A stretch of DNA of 64,000 bases from a virus: positions 1-64,000 of the IMG/VR virus record IMGVR_UViG_3300009514_000515. One strand, written 5' to 3'. Positions 4,938-39,223 of this stretch are shown one piece after another. The notes below the pieces were generated by a model, which had not been told where the DNA came from, did not search any database, and saw only the letters and a list, made by a program, of their open reading frames with translations. Both the position numbers and the translations under genes were made by a program. Each line of letters begins with the position of its first letter. Within the stretch, counting starts at the first letter, position 1.

Positions 4938-5102
4938 TCAGCGGACGTCACGAGAAGGTCCCGGAGTACGGTGGGGGAGGCCGTGCATGTGGCCGTGCAT
5001 GTGGCCTTCGGCCAACCACCCCTTCTGACCCGTCCCCTTCTTGAGCACCTTACCCGTCCCCTTCTTGAGCACCTTACCCGTCCCCTTCTTGAGCACCTTC
5101 AT
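4938..5102 (-). pseudogene. Small gene probably disrupted by tandem duplications (MKVLKKGTG x3)
   Basis: RBS/ATG triplicated, 24-bp unit x3, 12-bp unit x2; composition deteriorates after GQKGW. Confidence 0.4.
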
Positions 5103-6323: not shown

Positions 6324-8873
6324 CTAGTTTTTCTCAGACCCCAGAACGGGGTCTGGTTTGCGGAAATAGGTCAGGTCCTGGGCCTTGCCCGAACGGAACA
6401 GTTTCTCCCTGCGCCGGTGCTCGGGACAACAGTAAGACATGGAGTTCTTCATAGAGGTATCGACGAAGTCCTGGTCGCAGTGTCGGTACTGGCACGACTT
6501 CGTCCTCCCCTCAAGGTCTCGCTTCTCCTTACAGGCCGGACAAAGCTGGAAACCCCCGGAAGACTTCTCTTGCCACGTCGACCCGCAGCCCTTGCAGGTG
6601 AACGTCCAGGATGTTCGAGGAGACCTGAGCCGTCTCTTCTGAGCACGCCGATGGCGAGCGTAACAGGTGTCCCCACAGAACCGGCGACTGCTCCTTTTCG
6701 CAAGGAAGTGCTTGCCGCACCCTTCACAGATGGTGGGGATGCCTTCAGAGGCCTTACACGCCTTGCAGACGCCCCTGACCAGGTCCGATTTGCTTTGCAA
6801 ACCCCCACACCTCGAACAGCGAGACAGGGCCATGTCGGGGGCCTCAGAGAGTCTCTGAGGCGGCTCTCCCGGCTTCAGAAACGCCAAGACCTTCTCGTGG
6901 TTCTCCCGATTGCCGAACCGGGGCATTTCGTAACGGAACGTCTCCATACGCCCCAGTCCGAGGTCTCGACAGATTTTGATGGTGTCGGCAACTAGGTTGT
7001 AGCGGGCTTTTCCGACCGTGAAATCGTCGACATTCAAAACCATCCAACCACCAGACCGCAAAGCGACAAAAGCGCGCCTCAGGGCCTCCTGCAGAAACCC
7101 GGTCAACCAGGCCTCGTAGGTGCTGTATCGATTAGACGACTGCATCGGGTCGTCCGCATCGTAGACCTCCCGACACCAGTAAGGAGGGGAGGTGAGAACC
7201 AGGTCGCACGCCGGAGGATTGAAGTCCTCCGCTGGGCTCGAATGCAACTCCACCCGAGGGGATACTCCAGGCACATAATCGTCGAGCCACCTGACCAGGT
7301 GGCTCAGTCGAACAACACCCTCTCGATTAGGGTCACACCCGACATATCGCGGAGCGTGATTCGACAGAACAGACCCCAAAAGACGACCGCCGTATCCCGC
7401 ACAAGGGTCGTAAACGACCCCCCCAGGGCGGCAATAGCGGTCGACCAAAATCTTGGCCACCGACGGACGGAAGTTGTACACCCCCGAGAGCCTCCAGCTA
7501 CGCACGGCCGTTCGAACTTCCGCAGGACTATTCGGACGGCCAGAGAGGGCAAGACGAGAACGCAGGGCCTTTCGTAGAGACTGGGGGTCTAGGAACACCT
7601 GGAGAGGACTCTGCCGAGAACCTCGGCTGAGACCCTCCCAGATGTGCTTGGCAAAGGCATGACAGGTAGCCTGGCCCACTCGGTGGTATTTCAGAGACTC
7701 TCCGTCGCTTCGTAGAACATGCTCCGAGGACAGAGACATCAACGTCTCTAGCTCCTCTGGACGGGGAGACTGATAAGGGAATCCTCTCTCGTGCCAATAG
7801 GCTACCAGGTCATCCAGAAAGGACTCTTGCTGGCCTTCTTCCAGGGTACCCCACCACCGGGAGCGGGAGGCCAATGCCTCGGGAACCTTATCCTCTGGGG
7901 GAGTTCGATGAGGCCTGGCAGGAATTCCCCCTCGGGGCCAATGCTTCGGGGGTATCTTGTGAAGCATGTCCTCCGTTGCGTAGTCCCGCACCAGGTGTAG
8001 AAACACATCCGCACTCCGGGCACGGATGCCCATCTGCCTACAGGTGTCGGTAGATTGTGGGCGAACATACGTATCAAGTCCGAATCTCTTCTGGACCTGA
8101 AGACAGACCTCTTCGGCCTCCTTGTCGCTGATATCCCCAAGGGCAAAGGAAGGGAGACCGTCGCCTAGGCAACCGTCATCGAAATACCAGATAGCCAACC
8201 CCAAGGGACTCAGCCCTTGGAGAACACTCTCCGGGAACACTCTCCTGCCCTCGGGGTAGAACACCTGTCGCATTGATTTCAGCCACACATGCTGAACGGT
8301 CCGGAACGAGAACCCAAAGGTGACGGACCCCGTCCTCTCCATCACCTTCTCCTCATAGGAGATGGTCTTGGACAGAGGTTGGAGGAGGGTGTGCAAACGG
8401 CGTAGGTAGGTCAGCTGGTGCCAGGCATGGCCGACCTTCAAAACCCCTCTCTCCAGAAGATGGCCGTCGCCAAGCATCGTCCCCATCACAACCTGCTTCT
8501 GGTCGTCCGTAAGGAGACTTGTCTTCGTCGCCCGCTCCAACTTGCTGAGGGCTTTGATTCCCCACTTCTCGCGGAGTTTACGTATCGGAAACTTCGAGAC
8601 CCCGTAAAGAGAGCCAATCTGGGTGTCCGACATCTGACTGACCAGGTCGGCCAGAGACGCCGGACTCAGGTCGTCAAGACAGGGACCCTCTCGACCCCTC
8701 CGCTTTCTCTCTCGGGCTGAGATAGTCTCTATACCCCACCGGGACCTCAGACGACATACGGCAACGTCGGAGACCCCATACAGCGACGCAATCTCCGCAT
8801 CCGTGTGCTCCTGGTATAACTCCCGAAGCTGCCCTGGAGTCACCGCCTTTGACAATTTACCCCACTTACCCAC
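6324..8873 (-). CDS. HTH-LAGLIDADG endonuclease-amino-DNA methyltransferase-Zn-ribbon fusion protein
   Basis: GGAGGT RBS and GTG start; two EIASLYGVS-type HTHs; MGTMLGDG and LAIWYFDDG; motif I YDPCAGYGG; motif IV TSPPY; multiple C-terminal CxxC pairs. Confidence 0.85.
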   Translation of the reverse strand: MGKWGKLSKAVTPGQLRELYQEHTDAEIASLYGVSDVAVCRLRSRWGIETISARERKRRGREGPCLDDLSPASLADLVSQMSDTQIGSLYGVSKFPIRKLREKWGIKALSKLERATKTSLLTDDQKQVVMGTMLGDGHLLERGVLKVGHAWHQLTYLRRLHTLLQPLSKTISYEEKVMERTGSVTFGFSFRTVQHVWLKSMRQVFYPEGRRVFPESVLQGLSPLGLAIWYFDDGCLGDGLPSFALGDISDKEAEEVCLQVQKRFGLDTYVRPQSTDTCRQMGIRARSADVFLHLVRDYATEDMLHKIPPKHWPRGGIPARPHRTPPEDKVPEALASRSRWWGTLEEGQQESFLDDLVAYWHERGFPYQSPRPEELETLMSLSSEHVLRSDGESLKYHRVGQATCHAFAKHIWEGLSRGSRQSPLQVFLDPQSLRKALRSRLALSGRPNSPAEVRTAVRSWRLSGVYNFRPSVAKILVDRYCRPGGVVYDPCAGYGGRLLGSVLSNHAPRYVGCDPNREGVVRLSHLVRWLDDYVPGVSPRVELHSSPAEDFNPPACDLVLTSPPYWCREVYDADDPMQSSNRYSTYEAWLTGFLQEALRRAFVALRSGGWMVLNVDDFTVGKARYNLVADTIKICRDLGLGRMETFRYEMPRFGNRENHEKVLAFLKPGEPPQRLSEAPDMALSRCSRCGGLQSKSDLVRGVCKACKASEGIPTICEGCGKHFLAKRSSRRFCGDTCYARHRRAQKRRLRSPRTSWTFTCKGCGSTWQEKSSGGFQLCPACKEKRDLEGRTKSCQYRHCDQDFVDTSMKNSMSYCCPEHRRREKLFRSGKAQDLTYFRKPDPVLGSEKN

Positions 8874-8899
8874 CGAACCACCTCCCTGTTGTAGGATTG

Positions 8900-8929
8900 G
8901 TTCTAACCTGTGGGGCAAAGGACTGTCAA
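8900..8929 (-). promoter_or_regulatory. Candidate host sigma-70 promoter for the LAGLIDADG-MTase gene
   Basis: Perfect TTGACA, 18-nt spacer, weak -10 TAGAAC, just downstream of the capsid terminator. Confidence 0.35.
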
Positions 8930-10894: not shown

Positions 10895-12588
<1,694 letters not shown>

Positions 12589-25822: not shown

Positions 25823-28072
25823 TTACCTCCTCGGAGCGAATGTCCAGCCGGCCAGGCGAGGATGCTTGGGCAGCTCCTCTCGTCCTCGGGGCACTCCCGT
25901 AATACCGGGCTCGTCGGTCTCTACGACATACCGCGTTAGCGTCGAGAACTGACGACCACCGGGCATGCGCTTGATGTCTTTCTTGGTCGGTGGAGGCCCT
26001 TTGGCGCGCTCCGCCGGGATGATGTTGGATAGAGCACCAGAGTCGTGGAACTGCTTGACCTCACGCCGCTCGGGATTGTCGAAGAAGTAGCTCTCGGCGG
26101 TTAGGGGGTTGATAGGGTGCGAAGCGAACCAAAGGCGACGGAAGTCCTGAGCAGCCTTCTTGCCCTGTTCATCGACCATCTTCTGGAGGGACTTCTCGAT
26201 AACCTCCTCGTCGGGCTTGATGAGCTTGCGCGCCAGTTCGTCGAAGAACTCACCGAAATCGGCCTGGGCAGGAACCTCGTCCCCAACCTCGGACTCTTCC
26301 TCCCCAGACTCGACCTCGGACTCCTCGGTGGAGAACAAAAGGCGCAAACCGGCTTTCTTGGGCTTCTCGCGCTTCTCCTTCTTGTGCCCCCTCTCGATCT
26401 CTTTGTCCTCGCGGGCTCGCTCGGACTCGACGACTTCCCGCTCGGCTTCTCCAGAGGGGCCCGCCTGGGCGTAGTCCTCAGTCAGACGAGATATTTCTTT
26501 GACGGAGTCTTGGAGGCTCTTGGTCAGTGTGCGGGAGCGGTTGTGGGCATCTGAAACATCCCGCCCACCTTCCTCGACCTTGTCCTTGAGCTTGCGCAGC
26601 TTGTCGTCTTCTGGGTCGAGCTTCTTCTCGGCCTCGGCCAGGTCCTTCTTGGCCTGCTCCAGGGCCTTGGTGGCTTCGTCCCAGTCCTTGTTCGCCTCGT
26701 TGAGCTGAGTCTGCTGGTCTTCCAGCTTGATCTTGGCCTGGTCGTGCTTCTTCGAGTACTCCTGGTACCGCTTGCGCTTCTCCATCGCCGTCTCGGTGCC
26801 CTCGGGCTTGCCGGCGAACTCCAGCATGCTGTCCAGGATGTGTTCGATGGCGAACGCCAGGAACGAAGACGGACGACCCTTGGCCACCTCTGGCGGGAGG
26901 TTCTTGGCGAGGTTCTCGGCGAACTGGCGCTTGGTCTTCTCATCAGGGATAAGATCGCTAATCTCGGTCGACCCCTTGGCCTCGACCTCCTCCTGCATCT
27001 CCTCCTCGACCTTCGGGAACATCTTCTTCTTGAGGTCCTCGACCTGGCTGTCTAGCTCCTTATCGGTCATCTTATCGACCTCAGAGAGCCACTTGACGAC
27101 CTCACGATTCTTGAGTTTGTTGGCCAAACCGACGATGCGCTGACGAATGCTCGACTTGCTCTTGCCCAAGTACTCATCGATGAGCGCCTGGTCGTGTTCT
27201 GAGACGTCCTCGGCCTTCCCTTTGGCCTTGTCCTGCTCAGCCTTGAGGTCCTCCGGGGACTCCTCGGGGCGAGCCTCCTCGGGTTTCTTCTTCTTCGGAT
27301 GTGGCTTTTCGTCAGGCCCGTCCTTCGAGACCTCGGTCTCATCGAACTTCTGGCGGGTGTCCGGGCGGTCATCGAACTTCTGGCGGGTGTCCGGGCGGTC
27401 AATCCCCTCTACCCAGTCCCCCCACTCCTTGCGGTTAAGGGCCTTCTCTCCCTTGTCTCTCTTGCGCTTGACGTACGCCCGGTAGTCAGGGTCCTGCTCA
27501 CGACGTTCGACCCCCTTGGCCTCCAAAGAGAACCAGGCGAGGCGGAGCCGGCTTGACGCGAGGCGGTCCATGTCCCGTCGAGCGATGCGCTGACGCAGGA
27601 GGTAGATGTGACTCTCGTGGTCGTTCGCCAGAGACATCAGGAAGTCGTCGAGGCCGAGGGTCAGTACATCCAGTCTTTTGAGGATGTCGTAGACACTCTT
27701 GAGGGCCTTCTGGAGGTCCTGTTCACTCCTCAGACTGCGACGGTGGGGACAAGTGTAGATGGACCAACTACGAAGCCACTCTGTAGCCTTGTCGACCTGA
27801 CTCTCGTTGGAGAACGGGTAGATGCCCTCGGCCGGATCTCCCAGGAGGCCAACGACCTTCTCCGCTAGGGTGTCAACCTCCTGGCCCAGGTTGTTGTAGA
27901 GCCTCTCGAACAACAGGTGGTCGCCGTAGTAGGCGTTACCATGCACCTGCCAGTGGCAGGTCTGGTAATTCCACCTCTGAGCACGCAGCAGTGCCAACAC
28001 CTCCGTGAGATACCCACGGAGGGCCTGGCGTGCAGGGTCCGCCACGCGGTCTGTGGGGCGTCGTGTCTGCAT
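25823..28072 (-). CDS. Dps/ferritin-like domain fused to a long charged coiled-coil
   Basis: YQTCHWQVHG...DHLLFERLY...EVDTLAEK Dps ferroxidase signature, followed by ~570 K/E-rich residues. Confidence 0.8.
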   Translation of the reverse strand: MQTRRPTDRVADPARQALRGYLTEVLALLRAQRWNYQTCHWQVHGNAYYGDHLLFERLYNNLGQEVDTLAEKVVGLLGDPAEGIYPFSNESQVDKATEWLRSWSIYTCPHRRSLRSEQDLQKALKSVYDILKRLDVLTLGLDDFLMSLANDHESHIYLLRQRIARRDMDRLASSRLRLAWFSLEAKGVERREQDPDYRAYVKRKRDKGEKALNRKEWGDWVEGIDRPDTRQKFDDRPDTRQKFDETEVSKDGPDEKPHPKKKKPEEARPEESPEDLKAEQDKAKGKAEDVSEHDQALIDEYLGKSKSSIRQRIVGLANKLKNREVVKWLSEVDKMTDKELDSQVEDLKKKMFPKVEEEMQEEVEAKGSTEISDLIPDEKTKRQFAENLAKNLPPEVAKGRPSSFLAFAIEHILDSMLEFAGKPEGTETAMEKRKRYQEYSKKHDQAKIKLEDQQTQLNEANKDWDEATKALEQAKKDLAEAEKKLDPEDDKLRKLKDKVEEGGRDVSDAHNRSRTLTKSLQDSVKEISRLTEDYAQAGPSGEAEREVVESERAREDKEIERGHKKEKREKPKKAGLRLLFSTEESEVESGEEESEVGDEVPAQADFGEFFDELARKLIKPDEEVIEKSLQKMVDEQGKKAAQDFRRLWFASHPINPLTAESYFFDNPERREVKQFHDSGALSNIIPAERAKGPPPTKKDIKRMPGGRQFSTLTRYVVETDEPGITGVPRGREELPKHPRLAGWTFAPRR
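27341..27400. repeat. Perfect 30-bp tandem duplication (in frame, DRPDTRQKFD x2)
   Basis: atcgaacttctggcgggtgtccgggcggtc x2. Confidence 0.92.
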
Positions 28073-30078: not shown

Positions 30079-30795
30079 TCAGGTGCGTTCCGACTGGTCC
30101 TGGCTGATTTCCTCGTCGGCCCACCCTTCCGGATTCTGCTTGATCTCGTCTGCGTGCTCGATGATGTCCTCGACCTGACGACTGGACGCGGACCAGTGCG
30201 AGGCATGGACTTCGTCATGTAGCGTGTCTGATAGGGCAGATAGTGCCTCGACGACGTTCATGTACGCGCGACGCATCTCCGAGATACGCTGGATGTAGCC
30301 TCGACCTCCGAGCTTGCCGTCGGGGGAGACCATCCGAGACTTGATTTTGGCGAAGAGAGTGTAGCCGCTCATCGCGTGGCCAAGAGCGGCATTCGTCGCC
30401 CGCAGAGTCTTGGCCAGAGCCTTCACCTGCTTGGGGTCGTAGGTGTAGGCATCGGCGCGAGGCATGTCCCGTTCTGTCGGCGGAGTGGTGAATGCCCAGG
30501 AGGTAGCGTCGTTGGTGTTGTCCTTGACGTGGCGAACCTCTCCGGCCGTCCGAATCATGTAGGCCTGGGCAACCCTCTGGGCCACGTCGCGCTTGATGTG
30601 GGCTAGGACGGAGCGACGGACGTCCTTGAGAACGCCCAAAGGGACGTCCGCACTGGCCGTCCTGAAGCGAGGGTCCGCCTGTGTCCGCAGGGCCTGTGTC
30701 CACTGACGACAAGAGGAGGCCAACTGCTCCTTCGGGGTAGTTGGGGGGAGATGAAAAGACCCCACAACACATCGAGCGATGTCCCTGCGGTCCAT
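30079..30795 (-). CDS. Hypothetical head-module protein
   Basis: 238-aa ORF; RVAQAY motif; SPDGKLGGRGY. Confidence 0.7.
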   Translation of the reverse strand: MDRRDIARCVVGSFHLPPTTPKEQLASSCRQWTQALRTQADPRFRTASADVPLGVLKDVRRSVLAHIKRDVAQRVAQAYMIRTAGEVRHVKDNTNDATSWAFTTPPTERDMPRADAYTYDPKQVKALAKTLRATNAALGHAMSGYTLFAKIKSRMVSPDGKLGGRGYIQRISEMRRAYMNVVEALSALSDTLHDEVHASHWSASSRQVEDIIEHADEIKQNPEGWADEEISQDQSERT

Positions 30796-30797
30796 GG

Positions 30798-31388
30798 TTA
30801 TACTCCCTTGAGGGGAGACCCGTCCGAGTCGAACAGACGCTCGACGACGTATGTCTCGCCTTCCTTCCGATAGCTCCAGAGGTCCTGGGTCGATTTGTTC
30901 ACCAGTTCGTTGTGGCCGTTGAGGAAGAAGCTAGTGAGGTCACCCAGGCTCGTTGCCGTCACCATGACAGAACTGGCCTGTCGAAGGAGCGGAGGAGCTG
31001 GCTTGAGGTGATGAGCAGCGACAGCCCTCAGAAGGCCGTCGTCCCACATCACGAACACTCGCCCATCGAGGGCTGTCACGTCGCCGGATGCCGTCCGAAC
31101 CTTGACCACGGTGCCTTCGGCGTCGACCTGACCCCGCAGAGGGGTTGGGAAGTCCGAGTAGGCCAGCATGGCTTCGGCAGAAGAGACGAAGGACACCCGA
31201 GTGCCCGACAGAAGAGGAGCAGGCTCCGGAACGGGCAGCGGAGTGGGAGCTTTCCCAAACAGCACACCGAGGTCGTCGGTGCCGTCGGTACTGGTGATAG
31301 CCCGCCCAATTACGCTGTTGGCGAACCCGATGTCTCCAGAGGAGCCGATGTCGATGTTGCCTTCCAGAAGGTCTTCCCAGTATCCCAT
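30798..31388 (-). CDS. Hypothetical protein with SH3-like segment
   Basis: 196-aa ORF, AGGT RBS; GTRVSF...GTVVKV...VFVMWDDG. Confidence 0.65.
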   Translation of the reverse strand: MGYWEDLLEGNIDIGSSGDIGFANSVIGRAITSTDGTDDLGVLFGKAPTPLPVPEPAPLLSGTRVSFVSSAEAMLAYSDFPTPLRGQVDAEGTVVKVRTASGDVTALDGRVFVMWDDGLLRAVAAHHLKPAPPLLRQASSVMVTATSLGDLTSFFLNGHNELVNKSTQDLWSYRKEGETYVVERLFDSDGSPLKGV

Positions 31389-31399
31389 GGCTACCTACC

Positions 31400-31835
31400 T
31401 CACAGTACCGGGACCAGCTCCTTTCGCCGGTCCACGCCGATTCTGTCCCAGTGAATGACAAACCCTTTGTCCTTCACCCATGAAAGAACTTTCCTATAGA
31501 GAAGGTACAACAGCCGAGCCATGATGGTCGCCGGCAAGAGAGCGAAGGTCCCCAGGCCCGGGAACAAGGTCGCCACCAGGAGGCCGATGCCGGATTCCGG
31601 CAAGGACCCCAATAGCTCGCCCATCGACAGCCCGCCCGTGAACCCCCTGATGAGACCTTCGACGTCCCACGAAATCTCGGCCACATTGAGCCAGACCCAG
31701 ATGAACGCCGCAGCCATCAGGGGGCGGGCCAAGGTCTTGGCCAGACCCAGATGAACGCCGCAGCCATCAGGGGGCGGGCCAAGGTCTTGACCACCCTGCT
31801 CTTCTCCAACACTCTGTCGATAGGTTGGATGACAA
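31400..31835 (-). pseudogene. C-terminal remnant of a phage membrane protein, split by the insertion and frameshifted
   Basis: Frame IQPIDRVLEKSRVVKTLARPLMAAAFIWVWLN... is continuous once one copy of the 50-bp duplication is removed; no start codon of its own. Confidence 0.6.
31690..31789. repeat. Perfect 50-bp tandem duplication (frameshifting)
   Basis: gccagacccagatgaacgccgcagccatcagggggcgggccaaggtcttg x2. Confidence 0.93.
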
Positions 31836-31987
31836 TGGGGGCGAAGCTTCTGATGGTAGTCGCGGACGAAGTCGTAGAACTTGTACTGGCGTACATGCTC
31901 CCGCTCCACGCTCCAAAACAGAAACGACCCGATGGGGTAGCCTTGCATCAGGCTGTCGAACAGCCGCGCGATCTGCTCCGGTCGCCT
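31835..31987 (-). pseudogene. Internal fragment of a DUF262 (GmrS/ParB-like) defence protein
   Basis: RPEQIARLFDSLMQGYPIGSFLFW...; lacks the preceding QRxxVW and the following DGQQR motifs. Confidence 0.75.
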
Positions 31988-32062
31988 CCGGTTTCATATG
32001 ACCAGCTACGCCCCTGGCGCAGCAGCAGCGAGCCGTGACCAGAAGAACCCGGCACGCGCACA

Positions 32063-32527
32063 TCACGGCACCTCGATGCGGTGCGGCTCGAGCAGGTTGA
32101 AGACCGCTTCGTGGGCGTACCACCCGTCCAACGCCGGGTTCTCGTCCCAGCCGACATAGGCCGGGCTCGTTGGCGGAATTCCCTCGACGAGGGAACGGTC
32201 TGCAGCGCGACCAACCACGATGCAGGCGTGCCGATGGCGTGTGAGCATGACGCAGAGCCGACCGGGATCGAGATGGAACTCATCGACGTCGACGAGGCCC
32301 GCAAACGGGTGCCACGCGATGACGATCTCGTACGTGAGCCCCTGGAGCTTGTTCGCGGTGTTGACGACGACGTCCGTCAGACCGGCGTCGTCGAGTGCCA
32401 CCCTCAACAAGTTCTTCTGATCGTTGTGGCTTACGGCAACTGCAATTTCGTTCGCCTGAACGGGCTTCGCCCTCCGGTGCGTCTCGCACTGGGCAACGGG
32501 ACCGCGATCGAGGAGCCGAAGCAGTAG
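32063..32527 (-). pseudogene. C-terminal fragment of an SF1 (Upf1/DNA2-like) helicase
   Basis: IAVAVSHNDQ...VNTANKLQGLTY...RLCVMLTRHRH; no Walker A or start. Confidence 0.7.
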
Positions 32528-34850
32528 TGGTCGACGTGGAAGGAACGGGTCTCGCCCTCGTGGTCCGACGCCGTCTGGATCATCTCCGGGAGCGCGTGCA
32601 CGATGTAGCAGTCATCCGGAGGGGACCCGGGCGGCTCGCGGACGAGTGCGACTCCTTCTCCCAGGCATCAAGCTGGTACAGCGCACGGAAGACTGCCGGG
32701 ATGACGTGGTCGTAGAGCAAGTCGTTATGCCGACTGACCCACTCGACGATCTGGTCCAGGAGCTTCGGGGTTTGCTCGAACAGCTCTTCGATCGCGATGG
32801 GGCTCTTGTTGAGATAGCGTGCGACCTCCGCGACGACGGTGAGACGCGAGTGCTGGCGATCCTCCATGTCCACGACCTCGGACCGGCTGGACACGTCTCG
32901 GCCGTCCCCCCGCAGGCCAGTCTGGATGGTGCGGAGCACCTTGTAGCGCTCAACGAGCTCTTCTGAGAACGACAGGTCGAGCGGCCTGGGGGAGGCGATG
33001 TCCTTTAGCTCCCACAGGTGCCGCTTGCGGCGGATCTCCAGATGAGGGACCGGACGAACCGGACGGACTTCGACCCGCTGCTTGGACTGTCCGTCCTTCT
33101 TGAGTTCGTCGACGGTGAGCTTGTAGTTCTCGTGAAGCTCCTGATCCAGCATCTCCTTGCACTGCGTCGAAAGGTAGACGCGGCCTGTGCGCGTCGGGGG
33201 CATGTCGATGGCGCGGAGGCAGCGCATCGACGCCTGAAGCACGAAGATCTTGGACGTGGGCTTCCGGTAGAGCACGACACCGAAGAGCGACCGACAGTTC
33301 CAGCCCTCCTTGCCCTTGCCTACCAGGAGGATGAACTGCTTGTCCGAGTCGTGGGTGTCGAGGAGGTTGAACGAGCGGATGTCATCTGCCGTGGTGTGTT
33401 TGGAATCGCCCACGTTCACCAGGACCGATGTGCCTGAGATACCCGCGTCGCCCAGAACCTCGAGGAGCACGCGTCTCACGGGATCGATGTCTTTGATCTT
33501 GGGGACGAAGATCGCGAGCTTGGGAAGCATGCCCTCGTAGCGTCGGCCCCCGCCGTGGTGGCGAATGAAGTCGGCGACGGCATCCTTGACGAACTTCTTC
33601 TCGAGGACCTTTTTCTCGTCGACGTGCTGGACTTCGACCTCCTTGAGATAGCCAGCCTCGATCGCCTGCTTGAGCCCGTAGGCGTAGACCACCTCCGGGA
33701 AGACCTGTCCCTTGGCGTAGGGCGTGCCTGTGAAGTTGTAGCAGCCCACGACGCGCGTTCCGCGCTCCTTCAGGTCCTGCCCGAGGAGGTCGACTGTTCG
33801 CCGTAGGCTCGTAGCGCTCTCGGGGTCGAGGTCCTTGATGAGTGTGTTGCCGAAGGCGTGGTGGGCTTCGTCGATGAAGACCCCGAGCTGCTCCATTCTG
33901 CGAAGGGTCTCGTACCGCTGGTTCGTGACGATCTCCGCCTCGTTCTCAATCTCCTCGGTGTCGAACAGGTTCCGAGCCCGCGCTTCGGCGGAGGTCGGCT
34001 CGAGCGTCCGGGGCGTCGCCGCAAACAACTTGGCGGTCGCAGACGGCGTCTTGCTCTGCCGCTTGAGAATGATCTTCTGCGCGTTGCTGACGATGATGTT
34101 GAAACGCTGGCGCAGGCCCGTGAGGGTGGCGCCGTCCTCCTCGAGAAACCGAGCTTCCGCCGCGTCGATCACGTGCATGTACTCGGGCGGGACGACCAGC
34201 AAACGGTCGAACTGTTCAATGTCGCGGCGCAGAGTGGCGAGGACGGTCTTGTCCGGGGCGAAGATCAGGGCATTGTGCGCGTACCGGACATCCTTGGGGT
34301 ACGTGTTCGCCATCAGAAAGTCATAGAAGATGCACGTCGCCATGAGCAGCGTCTTGCCGGTGCCCATGGTCAACGCGAAGATGTAGTTCGCGTACTCGAC
34401 GGCCCCGCCCAGCTTCTTCATCTTCTCGAAGGCAGCCTTGTAGGCTTCCTCTCCGAAGTCCGCGTCGAAGAGCGACGCCTGCTCGTCGACCGATAGGCCG
34501 ATGGCGTCTCGCGTCGCGAACGGCGTCTCCTTCCGGTACCACTTCTCGAAGATCTCGTGGACCGGCCAGGCGCGCACGGCGCGGCCGCCCGCGGAGCGTT
34601 CGACCATGCGCTCCTTGAGGAAGATGTACATCTCGAGGGCCTGCGCTTGAGGCACGCGCAGGAAGCGAGGACGGGCGCGCCGCGCTTCCAGCACTTCGTC
34701 GTAGCCGAGGGGGGCGTTGTACTCGAGGAACCGTTGCGTCACGCCAGGGTAGTTGGCGCGGATCACGACGCGGTTCTTGCGGTACCAACCCCATAGCTCG
34801 TGGTGGAAGGCCTCGTCGAGCGTGACCACCTTGCGAACCGGCTTAGCCAT
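32517..34850 (-). pseudogene. res: Type III restriction Res subunit (SF2 helicase), frameshifted near 32652 and truncated at ~32517
   Basis: ALTMGTGKT, FIDEAHH, FTGTP, KEGWNC, QASMRCLR; alternative frame continues VALVREP...SFHVDHYCF and then joins the helicase fragment; no C-terminal nuclease domain. Confidence 0.8.
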
Positions 34851-36774
34851 GGTTCACCTCGACGCTCGCTTCGAAGACGTCGGAAAGCACATCCGTGATC
34901 TTCACCCGGATGGTGCCGGCGCCATCGGGAATCTCGTACTCCCCGGCGACCATCTCACCGCGAGCCGGGATGTCTGTCACCGCCGGGCGCAACACAGCAC
35001 CATCGAAGTTAAAGTCGATGAGCACGCTGTCGACGAACTCGCGCCAGTCGGAGACGGCCGCCTTCTCCATCGACAGCTTCTGGAGGAGGTTCATGGGGTA
35101 GAACCGCTCAATCCGCAGCCGCTGCCGCTTGACCGTGATCTTCGCCTCGCTGTCCCGCTTGAACTGGATGTGATCCTTGTCGCGAAGAATGTCGACGACC
35201 TCGATGTCGACTTTGCAGCCTGGGTCGTTGAGGCTGTTTCGGATCTCAGTGGTCAATTCCGCGGCGATGTCGGGTTCGTGTCCCATGCAGAGGAGCGTGA
35301 TTCGCTCTACCGGCTTCTTGGGCGCGTCCACGCGACGACGCGCAAGCTCTCGGTAGTCAAGGTTCTGAACGATGGGGGCGAGATCGGCCTTGGTGGCGAT
35401 ACGGTTGACCGGCATTACGCGGACTTGTCGGGCCTCGGTGCCTTCTCCAAGCTCCCCATGCCAGAGCGCGCCCCCTGCGAGCGGGCGCACGCCGATGGCC
35501 TCAAGCAGCAGTTCTCGTGCCTCGAGTTCGTTCCGGAAGACCTCGTACTGGTTGACGACGAACACGTCGAAGCCGGGAAGCGAAGCGGCCTGCGACTGAT
35601 CATCACGAGGCGTCGGCTTGCCCAGCGAAAGCTGGGATCGCAGGCGATGGATCGTTGTGGTTATCGCCCCTTGATTGATGTCGCTCCCGACAAATCGACG
35701 GCCCAGCCGAGACGCACAGGCCAACGTCGTTCCAGACCCGGCAAAGCAATCCAGTACGAGCGCCCCTGGCTTGGTCAGGCCAAGAATGATGCGTTCGAGC
35801 AGCAGCTCGGGCTTCTGGGTTGGGTAGCCGATACGTTCTGACGACTTCGGATCAAGCCCCTTCATATCCCAGACCGAGTCGATGGGTTGCCCGAGGGCCT
35901 CGTACACAACGTCATCAGCACCCGGATCTCGGCCGTGTTGCTTCTTCCACTTGTTCAAATAGCGAACAAATCTCGAATCCTGCGTGGGCATGTTGCCCCC
36001 TAGAATCCGCCCGCTCTCGTCCATGTAGGACTTCCAGCGCTTTCCATCGATCGTGTCGGCCAACTGTGTGTCAAAGAGCTGGTTGTAAGTGAAAGACACG
36101 CCTTTCGTGTACCAAAGGAGGGTGTCGTGTTTGCGGGGAAAATAGCCGTGCGTCTGCCCCTGGAAGGTGCGGTACCTCCAGACGATCTCGTTCTTGAATC
36201 CAGGCGCCCTTCCGTCTCCACCACCGTCGCCGAACACTTCGTCCATTAGGCACCGAAGGTGGTGCATCTTGTGCCAGTCGCAATGAAGAACGATGGATCC
36301 CGTTGAGCTCAGCAACTCGCGCAGCAGGTACAGCCTCTCATACATGAACTGCAGATACTCATCATTGGTCCACAGGTCCGAGTACTGTCGCTCCTCGAAT
36401 GCCGTTCCGTCGGATGAGGCGACTCCGGCTCGCTGCACGACCTTCTTCTTGTAGTCGGCCTTCGAGTCGAACGGTGGGTCGATGTAGACGAAGTCAACTC
36501 GTCCTCGGAACTTCCGCAGCAAGTGCCCCATCACCTGCAGGTTGTCGCCCCAGTACAGCTGGTTGCGCCATCCATGGACGGCGTCACCGTGGGACTCCTT
36601 GTGCTGCGCCGGGTAGTAGTGGACGCCGTTGAACGGCCGCTTCCCCTTCCACCACAGCTCCGGAAACCCGCGCTGGGGGTCTGGTCGGGAGGTCTCGACC
36701 TCGAAGAACTCGGTCTGCTCGGCCTCCGCCGGGACCAGGTCTTGCTGGCCGTCATTCTTCTTCTTCATCGTCAT
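34843..36774 (-). CDS. mod: Type III-like Mod adenine DNA methyltransferase (beta class), intact
   Basis: GDNL, YIDPPF (motif IV), YPTQKPE, LDCFAGSGTT (motif I); 8-nt overlap with res. Confidence 0.92.
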   Translation of the reverse strand: MTMKKKNDGQQDLVPAEAEQTEFFEVETSRPDPQRGFPELWWKGKRPFNGVHYYPAQHKESHGDAVHGWRNQLYWGDNLQVMGHLLRKFRGRVDFVYIDPPFDSKADYKKKVVQRAGVASSDGTAFEERQYSDLWTNDEYLQFMYERLYLLRELLSSTGSIVLHCDWHKMHHLRCLMDEVFGDGGGDGRAPGFKNEIVWRYRTFQGQTHGYFPRKHDTLLWYTKGVSFTYNQLFDTQLADTIDGKRWKSYMDESGRILGGNMPTQDSRFVRYLNKWKKQHGRDPGADDVVYEALGQPIDSVWDMKGLDPKSSERIGYPTQKPELLLERIILGLTKPGALVLDCFAGSGTTLACASRLGRRFVGSDINQGAITTTIHRLRSQLSLGKPTPRDDQSQAASLPGFDVFVVNQYEVFRNELEARELLLEAIGVRPLAGGALWHGELGEGTEARQVRVMPVNRIATKADLAPIVQNLDYRELARRRVDAPKKPVERITLLCMGHEPDIAAELTTEIRNSLNDPGCKVDIEVVDILRDKDHIQFKRDSEAKITVKRQRLRIERFYPMNLLQKLSMEKAAVSDWREFVDSVLIDFNFDGAVLRPAVTDIPARGEMVAGEYEIPDGAGTIRVKITDVLSDVFEASVEVNHG

Positions 36775-37016
36775 CCTCGCCGGTCGCAGTAGGCTTTCAT
36801 GTCGCAGTTCTTGCAGAGCTGTTCGGGCCGTTCCTGAATGTCGAAGTCCTTCGACTCGATGCGCGCGACCACGTCATCGAACCCTTGCATCGTGCGCTCG
36901 ATACGCACGGGATCCATGTCGTATGAGATGCGGGGGTTCCCGTGGAGCGCTCCGGTATAGTGCAGGTGGAGCTTGGTCACTCGCTTGCCGTGGCGCTTCT
37001 CCACGAGTTGCCCGTA
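36771..37016 (-). pseudogene. C-terminal fragment of a RecB-family PD-(D/E)XK nuclease
   Basis: YGQLVEKRHG...LHLHYTG...LCKNCDMKAYC; begins abruptly at the insertion junction. Confidence 0.65.
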
Positions 37017-37288
37017 TCCTTGATACGAGTCCAGACCTTAGGCGCCCTCTTGAAGAGCTTCAGGAGGCCATTGAGCTTGCGTCCCAGACCACCCAGGAGT
37101 GCCGTGCGTGTCTTCGCGTTGATGGCCGGGAGGGTGAACGCCTCCGCGAACCCAACGAGGACCTCGGGAGTCAGGTCGTGCAGGCTCGCAGAGCGTTGGT
37201 GGAACCCGACCGAGGCGTAGGCTTCGGCGGCCGCGACTCGGATGAAGTACCGGTCGGCGACCCGCTGTGCGATCTCGGCCTGGACCAT
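37017..37288 (-). pseudogene. N-terminal remnant of the phage gene split by the insertion
   Basis: MVQAEIAQRVADRY...KVWTRIKD then reads into foreign DNA and stops at 36977. Confidence 0.6.
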
Positions 37289-37292
37289 CGAC

Positions 37293-38021
37293 TCACCACA
37301 CGCTGTGCTGGTAGTCGTAGCCAATCTTCTCCTTGCTCAGCCAGTCGGTGAACCCCTCCCAAGACACACCCTTGAGGGCCTTAGGGTCCGCCTTCAGGAT
37401 CTTGAACAGCTTACGTGCTGCCCCGGAGCTTTTCTCCTTAATCTTGGTGTAATAGGGGTCCTGTAACTGGAAGTCAGAGCTGGGGGAGTAGGCACTGAAC
37501 TCTGTCCACTCCGAGGTCACGGCGAAGTCCTTGGCCTCGGCAGTGATTGGCTGGACGTCGAGAGGAACCACCTTGAGGTAGAACACCTGCTTCTCGGAGA
37601 CGCGCACGCCATCGTCCTTGTCGAGGCCCTTCTTCTCGACAGCCTTACGAGCCTTGTCGACCGCCCCTTTGAGAGCCTTGAGGACCTTGTCGTAGTCCAT
37701 GCTCTTCGAAAGCTTGGCGTCGTTGATGAGGTTGATACCGAGGAACTCGTCGAGGTGGAGAGTCTGCACCGCATACCACATCGTGATTTCAGTGTATCCC
37801 ATCTGCCTCTTGAACTTCTTGCCTGGGATTTCCTCTACCAGGATGTACGCGTTGTGGTAACTGACCCGGACGTCCTTGCCAATCCAGACCGCGTCCCAAC
37901 GCCCACCTCCGCGAGCCCACTTGGCTCGGGCATCGTGGTTGAACACCAAGGGAACCAGTGTCTCCCGAAACTCGGGGCGTTGACTGGCCAAACGAATAAC
38001 GGCCTCGCGAAGACCCATCAC
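37293..38021 (-). CDS. Hypothetical head-module protein
   Basis: GGAGGT RBS; N-terminal LREAVIRLASQRPEFRETLVPL helix motif. Confidence 0.7.
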   Translation of the reverse strand: MMGLREAVIRLASQRPEFRETLVPLVFNHDARAKWARGGGRWDAVWIGKDVRVSYHNAYILVEEIPGKKFKRQMGYTEITMWYAVQTLHLDEFLGINLINDAKLSKSMDYDKVLKALKGAVDKARKAVEKKGLDKDDGVRVSEKQVFYLKVVPLDVQPITAEAKDFAVTSEWTEFSAYSPSSDFQLQDPYYTKIKEKSSGAARKLFKILKADPKALKGVSWEGFTDWLSKEKIGYDYQHSVW

Positions 38022-39223
38022 AACCTCCTGTGGACGGCATACTTGACCGTCGTCGTCTGAGCGCCTGAGAAGGACGCGGTGAACCCAGAGGCCGTAGGAC
38101 TGGTTGTCCCGAGGGCTTCGGTCAGTTCCGTCTCGTAGGTCACATGGTAATCATCGTCGGGGCCGTCCACCGCGAAGGAGACGGCCTCAGAAGACGATGC
38201 TGTAAAAGAAATCGTACCTCTCTGGAGGTCCTCGGCGATGGTACCGGCCCCTGCGATGGAGGTTCTCTTGCAACCCCGCATGACGAGAGGGGCAGAGTTG
38301 TTGACCACCACCGAATCGAGGTCGCTGTTCGCCGCCTCGAAAGTTCCGACCCCGTCTCCGTCAAGAGTGAGGCCACCACCAGACCCAGACCTCATAACGC
38401 TGTCGATGGACAAGCTGCCCACGCCCGTCAGGGTCGACATGATGTTGCCGAGCAGCGCCATGCTGGCCAGGTGGTAAGACGAACTCACCAGGGAAGGAAT
38501 GGGGTTGCCGGAGTCGTAGTCGAGCTGAAGGTGAACGGCCTGGTCGATGTCGCGAATCGAGCACCGGGCACATTGGGTGATGCGAGTCAGGGACGTCGAG
38601 TGACTTCCCGCCCAGGTGCCTCCTTGGATGCGGATGTTGTTGACAGTGGTCGCTCGGACCTGGAACGCCCCGGCGCCCGAGGCGACCAGGTCGCAGTCAA
38701 CGATGCCGACCTCGGCAGAGCCGATAACGGACGTAGCTCCACCGATGATGTCGATGCAGGGGTCGCCTGCGAAACTGTTGGCAATGCGCAGGTTCTGGAT
38801 ATGAAGCCAGTTCGGGTCTGTACCGACGGCCGACTGGACGATGATGGTCGCCCCTGCTGAGGGCGCCTCGATGGAGGCCCCTCCAGGACTCATGAGCCAG
38901 ATGCCGTCCTTCTCGATGGTCACCTGCTCGGCGTACACCCCCGCAAGAATGTAGACGATGCTGGGGTCTGTCAGGCTGCTCGTCGCCAGGACGGCATCGA
39001 CGGCGGCCTGGATGGTATTGTACTGAGCACCGCTGCCACTCTTGCCGACGACGAACACGTTGGCGATGGAACGCAGACCGGCCAAGTCGGCCACAGTGAG
39101 ACCGGCCACCGTTGGGTCGGTGATGCGGATGGCACCAGTCGCGGGGTCTCGCTCAATGAGACGCGTCCCGGTCTCTCCGGGAGCAATCTGGATGGCGTCG
39201 ACTTGGATGGGGTCCTGGGGCAT
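38018..39223 (-). CDS. Pectin-lyase-like beta-helix virion protein (spike/fibre)
   Basis: AQYNTIQAAVDA...YILAGVYAEQVTI helix-cap motif; C-terminal small beta domain DYHV...SGFT. Confidence 0.7.
   Translation of the reverse strand: MPQDPIQVDAIQIAPGETGTRLIERDPATGAIRITDPTVAGLTVADLAGLRSIANVFVVGKSGSGAQYNTIQAAVDAVLATSSLTDPSIVYILAGVYAEQVTIEKDGIWLMSPGGASIEAPSAGATIIVQSAVGTDPNWLHIQNLRIANSFAGDPCIDIIGGATSVIGSAEVGIVDCDLVASGAGAFQVRATTVNNIRIQGGTWAGSHSTSLTRITQCARCSIRDIDQAVHLQLDYDSGNPIPSLVSSSYHLASMALLGNIMSTLTGVGSLSIDSVMRSGSGGGLTLDGDGVGTFEAANSDLDSVVVNNSAPLVMRGCKRTSIAGAGTIAEDLQRGTISFTASSSEAVSFAVDGPDDDYHVTYETELTEALGTTSPTASGFTASFSGAQTTTVKYAVHRRL

Follow-up and report, generated by a model that had tools for sequence, protein, structure and literature searches.

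A type III-like methyltransferase gene among broken defense genes inside a conserved gene of a probable jumbo-type marine phage

A foreign segment within a conserved phage gene

The window analyzed here is the first 64 kb of the IMG/VR virus record IMGVR_UViG_3300009514_000515, a linear record of 86.6 kb with a completeness estimate of 18%. Between positions 31836 and 37016 it carries a segment of defense-type genes enclosed by the two ends of a single phage gene (Table 1). The only complete gene of this segment is a mod gene related to the methyltransferase genes of type III restriction-modification systems, which is oriented like the phage genes around it. An initial annotation, made from the letters alone, had described a foreign segment at 31835-37016, between two remnants of one phage gene, with five genes of which only mod was complete. 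All of this was borne out by homology searches and sequence composition. The same annotation had taken the event for an insertion of ~5.2 kb; the size and the flanks agree with our results, but part of the target gene has been lost.

Table 1 Features of the segment and of the phage gene that encloses it, in the direction of transcription
Feature	Position	Strand	Evidence
Phage gene, N-terminal remnant, 91 codons	37016..37288	-	88% identity to P0001 residues 1-91
UvrD-helicase/PD-(D/E)XK 3' tail (~80 codons; Cas4-like, Cys-rich end)	36771..37016	-	49% identity to L006 protein
mod, complete, type III-like, 643 aa	34843..36774	-	N6_N4_Mtase, E 6e-45; PADLOC MTase_III, E 3e-47; EcoP15I Mod 4zcf_A, E 7e-13
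res, first ~733 codons, original frame (helicase/ATPase part)	32653..34850	-	ResIII, 27.7 bits versus cut-off of 22.5
res continuation, shifted frame after 13-nt deletion at 32652/32653	32519..32652	-	Ends at ...HYCF motif
SF1 helicase, last 151 codons (32063-32518) plus 82 nt of downstream DNA	31981..32518	-	AAA_12, E 3e-8
DUF262 (GmrSD/HEC-05-like), internal piece of the N-terminal domain, ~48 codons, ~145 nt	31836..31980	-	phrog_17051, E 3e-9
Phage gene, C-terminal remnant (residues 168-294)	31403..31835	-	P0001 matches; hydrophobic C-terminal half; broken by 50-nt duplication
Perfect 50-nt tandem duplication, 2 copies (31690-31739, 31740-31789)	31690..31789	.	100% identical copies

The N-terminal remnant of the phage gene runs on out of frame as a 115-amino-acid (aa) open reading frame (ORF) at 36977-37324. 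When this ORF was compared by HMMER to 1.84 billion representatives, 21 matches were found, 19 of which stop at the junction, at ORF residues 102-105. On the other side of the segment, residues 168-198 of the 294-aa relative P0001 match 31833-31741 and its residues 181-294 match 31744-31403 (89% identity). For the 112 residues encoded by 31738-31403, a search found 25 longer relatives at an E value of ≤0.01, mostly of 276-298 aa, and the closest of them is again P0001 (91% identity). By these matches, the two remnants are the ends of one conserved jumbo-phage gene of ~294 aa. Its codons 92-167 (76 codons, 228 nt) are lost, with a segment of 5,181 nt in their place, and because these codons were removed, the event is a replacement and not a plain insertion. 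As anticipated by the initial annotation, related phages carry the gene uninterrupted: it is whole in all eight related IMG/VR loci, and in none of the eight do the insert genes (four were considered) appear within 10 kb. No second copy of the gene was found in the 86.6-kb record. Searches for its function gave nothing in PHROGs at an E value of ≤0.01 and no Atlas hit at 0.9 or above.

The tetranucleotide distance between 31836-37016 and the rest of the record was 0.0247, a value reached by none of 142 equal-sized phage windows (mean of 0.0111, standard deviation of 0.0013, maximum of 0.0146). Similarly, the GC content at third codon positions (GC3) of res was 0.86, compared to 0.68-0.79 in 16 phage genes. 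Composition and gene content together support the view that the segment is foreign to the phage and derives from defense-type genes. It appears to consist of at least three separate pieces of such genes, all in one orientation, namely, a 4.5-kb operon fragment, 538 nt from a superfamily 1 (SF1) helicase gene and its downstream DNA, and ~145 nt from a DUF262 gene.

The mod gene

The Mod protein aligns end to end with its cellular homologues, matching, for example, residues 18-630 of the 630-residue Mod of locus L006. It has the motifs DPPF at residue 99 and FAGSG at residue 344, that is, motif IV upstream of motif I with a variable recognition region between them, which is the arrangement of beta-class N6-adenine methyltransferases. 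Among 118 alignment columns that are invariant in 12 homologues, Mod keeps 108. NCBIfam gave matches for Mod and Res only far below the cut-off. The first ATG of mod overlaps the stop codon of the upstream UvrD/PD-(D/E)XK fragment, and a GAGGA sequence is found 5 nt ahead of the second ATG (36768). The minus strand carries nearly all the long ORFs of the window, and mod has the same orientation as the phage genes, as had been noted before. From these features, Mod looks active and should be transcribed together with the phage genes.

The GC content drops to 0.56-0.57 at 35750-36500, in the middle of mod, versus 0.61-0.66 on either side. This stretch coincides roughly with the target-recognition region of beta-class enzymes and may have a history different from that of the rest of the gene.

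The broken genes

The remaining genes of the segment are incomplete. Positions 37016-36777 align to residues 869-948 of a 956-aa protein of L006 that has the Pfam domains UvrD-helicase and PDDEXK_1. What remains of this UvrD protein with its C-terminal PD-(D/E)XK domain is the last ~80 residues, and the 77-aa ORF alone had no Pfam hit.

The res gene lies directly downstream of mod, which it overlaps at 34843-34850, and retains a superfamily 2 (SF2) helicase-like ATPase part, with 44% identity to residues 13-724 of the L006 Res and 85% identity to residues 1-737 of P0048, its nearest relative; the PADLOC REase_III match had an E value of only 7e-5. After 32652 the reading frame changes, since residues 738-784 of P0048 match 32652-32512 in frame -2 (81% identity). 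One metagenome contig (X2, depth of 2) has 13 extra nt at this point, and the protein comparison gives the same loss of 13 nt. Homology to Res then stops at ~32512-32518, corresponding to residue 784 of P0048, in which a TnsA-like nuclease domain is found at residues 822-882. In the window, the sequence reads on into the helicase piece instead of into a C-terminal PD-(D/E)XK-type nuclease. Both the frameshift near 32652 and the cut before the nuclease domain had been recognized by the initial annotation. Because the nuclease domain is gone, Res is predicted to be incapable of cutting, and no restriction should be possible. Neither Res nor the helicase piece had a match in a sequence search of the PDB. 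P0048 itself (1084 aa) has a Peptidase_S24 (LexA-like) domain at residues 931-1072, behind the Res nuclease domain, which could reflect either a genuine fusion or, the contig being short, a read-through.

The SF1 piece reached 33.9 bits for AAA_12 (cut-off of 27) and covers profile positions 107-194 of 195, in place of the two RecA-like domains with ATP-binding motifs found in a full helicase of the AAA_11/AAA_12 type. The DUF262 piece matches positions 45-82 of 584 in phrog_17051 and positions 64-105 of 600 in PADLOC HEC-05 (E value of 1.4e-14), far from the full domain, which is usually accompanied by a C-terminal DUF1524 nuclease. These matches cover ORF residues 1-42, the 54-aa piece alone had no Pfam hit, and the right end of the piece falls somewhere between 31823 and 31836. 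The partial coverage agrees with the earlier description of the SF1, DUF262 and RecB-like nuclease genes as fragments. The helicase, DUF262 and UvrD/nuclease pieces are all far too short to work, which leaves Mod as the sole functional candidate.

The operon family and the search for a donor

Cellular relatives of Mod (~45% identity) sit in a conserved operon with the order UvrD/PD-(D/E)XK - Mod - Res. The upstream UvrD/PD-(D/E)XK gene was present in 15 of the 17 loci with Mod relatives; one of the other two contigs starts inside mod, and in the other, 3.2 kb contain no such gene. Res was found in 14 of the 17, and the remaining three loci end at the contig end. Since this order is conserved in cellular relatives, the stretch 37016-32519 is best read as one collinear operon fragment of ~4.5 kb, cut at both ends. 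Relatives of the SF1 and DUF262 pieces were found in the flanks of none of 19 cellular operon loci. These two pieces belong to other genes, and, because of the result in the 19 loci, a single shared island of origin is only a possibility.

The initial annotation had proposed to look for the intact donor island and its host taxon. No close donor emerged from this search: Mod matched nine loci in genome_contigs at ≤47% identity and 10 loci in metagenome_contigs at ≤46%, and had no match in viral_contigs. Relatives of Res were more numerous (1925 at an E value of ≤1e-20). The three-gene operon, whose Res carries a TnsA-like nuclease domain at its end, was seen from Clostridia to Rhodobacteraceae (loci L002-L009 and L019-L027, with L034 being the phage PV036426.1 described below), and a full-text literature search returned no paper on the arrangement UvrD/PD-(D/E)XK - Mod - TnsA-ended Res.

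Junctions and tandem duplications

To place the junctions, the window was compared to contigs of four runs from one sample labeled as marine metagenome, and the counts that follow are among the matches listed. Their identity to pieces of the insert was 91-100%, with 0 differences in 422 nt (33125-33546) and 3 in 534 nt (31985-32518); for the SF1 piece, 31981-32518, identity was 99.4-100%. At three of the junctions, all the listed contigs stop matching the window and continue with sequence of their own: two of two at 37016 (for 296 and 79 nt), three of three at 32518 (for 319, 75 and 96 nt) and two of two at 31981 (for 493 and 92 nt). Because contigs run past these points, an unbroken nuclease-helicase gene, an unbroken SF1 helicase gene and the downstream region of this helicase exist in nature, in versions close to the insert in sequence. 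A donor genome with the same truncations, which the initial annotation had named as grounds for giving up its reading, is likewise made less probable by the contigs that extend past the three junctions, although they do not settle the matter. The phage itself was absent from the four runs, where coverage was almost nil over the phage flanks and the middle of mod (~35500-36340), and this carries no evidential weight either way. Contig joints that skipped 5756, 7347 and 2320 nt were taken as chance matches, with sides of 21-22 nt and a likeness of 90.

The overlaps between neighboring pieces are 0-2 nt. A deletion at the Res/helicase junction mediated by a microhomology of 11 nt had been proposed. 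It finds no support in the comparison, as the three helicase-type contigs all stop matching at 32518 and P0048 has D where the window has G at the next codon, so that ~2 nt at most are shared. At 37016 the overlap is 0-1 nt. No transposase or integrase was matched by Pfam in the insert, including the six plus-strand ORFs picked in and around it (0/6 with a Pfam hit), and no target duplication flanks the segment, in accordance with the initial annotation. An insertion mediated by a transposon or integrase was rejected on these grounds and because of the 228 nt of target lost.

A feature that had been overlooked is the 50-nt tandem duplication. Located 46 nt from the right junction, it falls within the C-terminal remnant, in a stretch that is single in the relatives. 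The duplication shifts the frame by +2, and the ORF that starts in the phage frame at ATG 31896 stops at 31717. A frame opened by ATG 31948, which belongs to the DUF262 piece, passes through the first copy out of phase before entering the true phage C terminus, giving a 182-aa ORF (31400-31948). Without the duplication, a similar product would start at ATG 31896. The record contains three other perfect tandem duplications (24 nt ×3 at 5028-5099, 18 nt ×2.6 at 11196-11242 and 30 nt ×2.1 at 27339-27401). Slippage duplications thus seem to be common in this phage genome, so that the 50-nt duplication need not be an artifact and may be real. Another possibility is that it represents an untrimmed overlap between assembly pieces. 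A further tandem duplication, with a 12-nt unit, is located at 4979-5006, and the units of 24, 18, 30 and 12 nt are all multiples of three.

The phage and its neighborhood

Relatives of the interrupted gene sit on viral contigs of 55-437 kb, with six of the eight loci on contigs of 257-437 kb. Three related contigs share the order of neighboring genes (clamp loader, 401-aa gene, 238-aa gene, 662-aa gene and others). Given the large contigs of the relatives and the shared gene order, the record would therefore appear to be a piece of a jumbo-type marine phage. A megablast search of deposited phages with 30500-38500 returned no match.

Directly upstream of the interrupted gene is a 242-aa gene (37293-38021, minus strand) without Pfam or PHROG match. 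It has no relatives in viral_contigs, and its match to related phages is limited to the first ~30 residues. In the window, a 196-aa gene (30798-31388) is found downstream of the interrupted gene, while in three related phages (L011 9231-9632, L012 9517-9972 and L013 8451-8843) the homologue precedes the intact gene on its upstream side, which is either a local difference in gene order or a paralogue. Farther away, an 864-aa ORF (6324-8918, minus strand) combines a LAGLIDADG_2 endonuclease domain (E value of 3e-18) with an N6_N4_Mtase-like domain. The latter, at 6861-7205, scored 26.6 bits, just below the cut-off of 26.7, and the phage may thus have a second DNA methyltransferase.

Origin and possible role of the insert

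The explanation that we favor, with a probability of about one-half, is a recent capture by nonhomologous recombination, after which the Mod of the phage would methylate the phage's own DNA and allow it to escape the matching restriction system. Bacterial DNA (or that of another mobile element) would have entered the conserved gene of a jumbo-type phage, with 76 codons exchanged for 5.18 kb. The mod gene, with its own ribosome-binding region and all its catalytic motifs, would be transcribed along with the phage genes, as is expected from their common direction. Phage DNA would then be methylated at the Mod target during infection, and the phage would escape in hosts that carry the whole operon. 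The initial annotation had reached a comparable interpretation, that of a captured defense island; the defense origin, the single intact Mod and the unbroken versions found elsewhere speak for it, whereas the microhomology-mediated deletion that formed part of it is not supported.

Several observations weigh against this explanation. Ten of the 118 invariant columns are altered, mostly in a conservative way but including D338A, just before motif I. The lesions of the insert are all rearrangements and are clustered at one end, within ~960 nt; as the internal ones number only three, it is not improbable that all of them missed Mod. The identity of 99-100% between parts of the insert and marine contigs suggests a capture too recent for much decay. 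Were it indeed so young, a 1.9-kb gene would be expected to be whole even without selection, so that an intact Mod says little in favor of selection. The assignment to type III comes from the family name and the similarity of Mod, given that Res matches no solved structure. In 30500-38500, no promoter-like sites were found, and the terminator-like sites numbered five, versus 5.2 expected. The 34-nt pattern across the junction had no matches in viral_contigs or metagenome_contigs, collections from which the record itself may be left out. Finally, this genome may be a defective variant, since the gene that was broken is conserved and the record holds no second copy.

How the mosaic arose is a question that can be combined with either view of its function. 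It is possible, although we would put it at somewhat below even odds, that the mosaic did not arise by whittling within the phage. It would then have been formed either in one step, by serial template switching during replication or break repair, with three nearby pieces of a defense island copied and 50 nt duplicated beside the joint, or by the capture of an island that had already decayed in the donor. The breakpoints at 32652, 32518, 31981, ~31836 and 31690-31789 fall within ~960 nt, leaving 4.4 kb collinear with the operon. The pieces next to them are tiny (538 and ~145 nt) and co-oriented, their overlaps are of 0-2 nt, and a duplication lies beside the junction. However, successive deletions would likewise leave small collinear remnants close together, the actual donor molecule cannot be recognized from the marine contigs, which show only that unbroken versions exist, and none of the 19 operon loci had SF1 or DUF262 relatives in its flanks. 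The capture of an island followed by whittling, a single complex event and a mosaic donor fit the data equally well.

Close behind the capture of a useful Mod comes the idea, which we hold to be somewhat less probable, that the insert is a neutral relic, which landed by accident in a gene that was dispensable or defective beforehand. Mod would be of no selected benefit, and whole only because the 4.5-kb operon piece happened to cover it and the event is young. Should the near identity to the marine contigs reflect a recent capture, few point mutations would be expected in a gene of 1.9 kb, and the lesions are indeed rearrangements without substitutions. A conserved phage gene was destroyed with no second copy seen, and the record already has another methyltransferase-like domain at 6861-7205. 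On the other hand, mod has retained its native start region and is oriented in the same sense as the phage genes, and passages of PMC12707154 describe orphan methyltransferases on phages and mobile elements as an established anti-restriction device, but neither amounts to a proof of selection.

An elaborate version of the capture seems unlikely to us: a single template-switching event would have brought three pieces of host defense genes into a gene of the virion region and produced the 50-nt duplication, with a working Mod that shields the phage from the very system from which it was copied. Its corollary, that through the duplication the C-terminal membrane half of the broken protein regained an open frame, now led by a borrowed start codon, appears just as doubtful.

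An assembly or laboratory chimera, with the 50-nt duplication as an untrimmed k-1 overlap, is very improbable: the junction pattern is missing from the other collections, 50 nt is exactly the overlap size for k = 51 and the record is a linear fragment of low estimated completeness, but a misjoin would have to re-enter the same gene on the same strand 228 nt further on via three more joins without any long shared sequence, the repeat has phage sequence on both flanks, so that phage is joined to phage, and the three other perfect duplications (24, 18 and 30 nt) are not overlap-sized. The capture is thus probably real and the contig correct, because the contig re-enters the same phage gene in the same strand and order 228 nt on, and none of the four joins has any long shared sequence.

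If the elaborate single-event version is true, this locus would be a natural and datable example of phages turning host restriction into counter-defense, with near-identical unbroken pieces still present in the environment. The origins of phage methyltransferases are usually erased, while here the scars and exact breakpoints can be read, providing a concrete and testable case of the way in which restriction genes pass from hosts to phages and of what survives of them. What is already known of anti-restriction is left unchanged by the finding.

Comparison with known systems

Type III Mod enzymes, such as those of EcoP15I and EcoP1I, methylate without Res, and phages use orphan methyltransferases against restriction, for example, T4 Dam and P1 Dmt. 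Like these, the window has a methyltransferase gene in the sense direction of the phage genes and without a working nuclease partner, and, presuming that the contig is correct, Mod belongs among the orphan methyltransferases, in a phage genome that has no working cognate nuclease for it. It differs from the usual ones in that a broken Res, the tail of an operon gene and two scraps of other defense genes are retained, and its activity is a prediction. The likeness to EcoP15I and EcoP1I lies in the beta-class Mod, with motif IV before motif I, and in the res gene directly downstream with its ResIII domain; unlike them, the family found in the window has a TnsA-like nuclease domain in Res and a third, upstream gene, UvrD/PD-(D/E)XK.

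A whole type III system on a phage is known from EcoP1I of P1. For the operon family described here, the Acutalibacteraceae phage NatCom_11578 (PV036426.1) was the only one of 50,697 phage records with a match covering ≥80% of Mod (45% identity). Its Res (40%) is directly downstream of Mod, and a "DNA helicase" is located upstream, with one small gene between. However, all its genes are whole and make up a complete system, and this 58.7-kb gut phage is unrelated to the phage of the window.

As to the joints themselves, replicative template switching typically gives tiny co-oriented pieces, overlaps of 0-2 nt and a local duplication beside a joint, and microhomology-mediated break-induced replication (MMBIR), a form of microhomology-mediated template switching, is known mainly from cellular genomes. 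The window resembles the products of illegitimate recombination or MMBIR in its overlaps of 0-2 nt, its short templated pieces joined together and its local tandem duplication, although the mechanism would here be read from the end product, and stepwise deletion gives the same picture. Phage-borne anti-restriction methyltransferases are thus already known, and what is unusual in this phage is only the preserved record of the capture.

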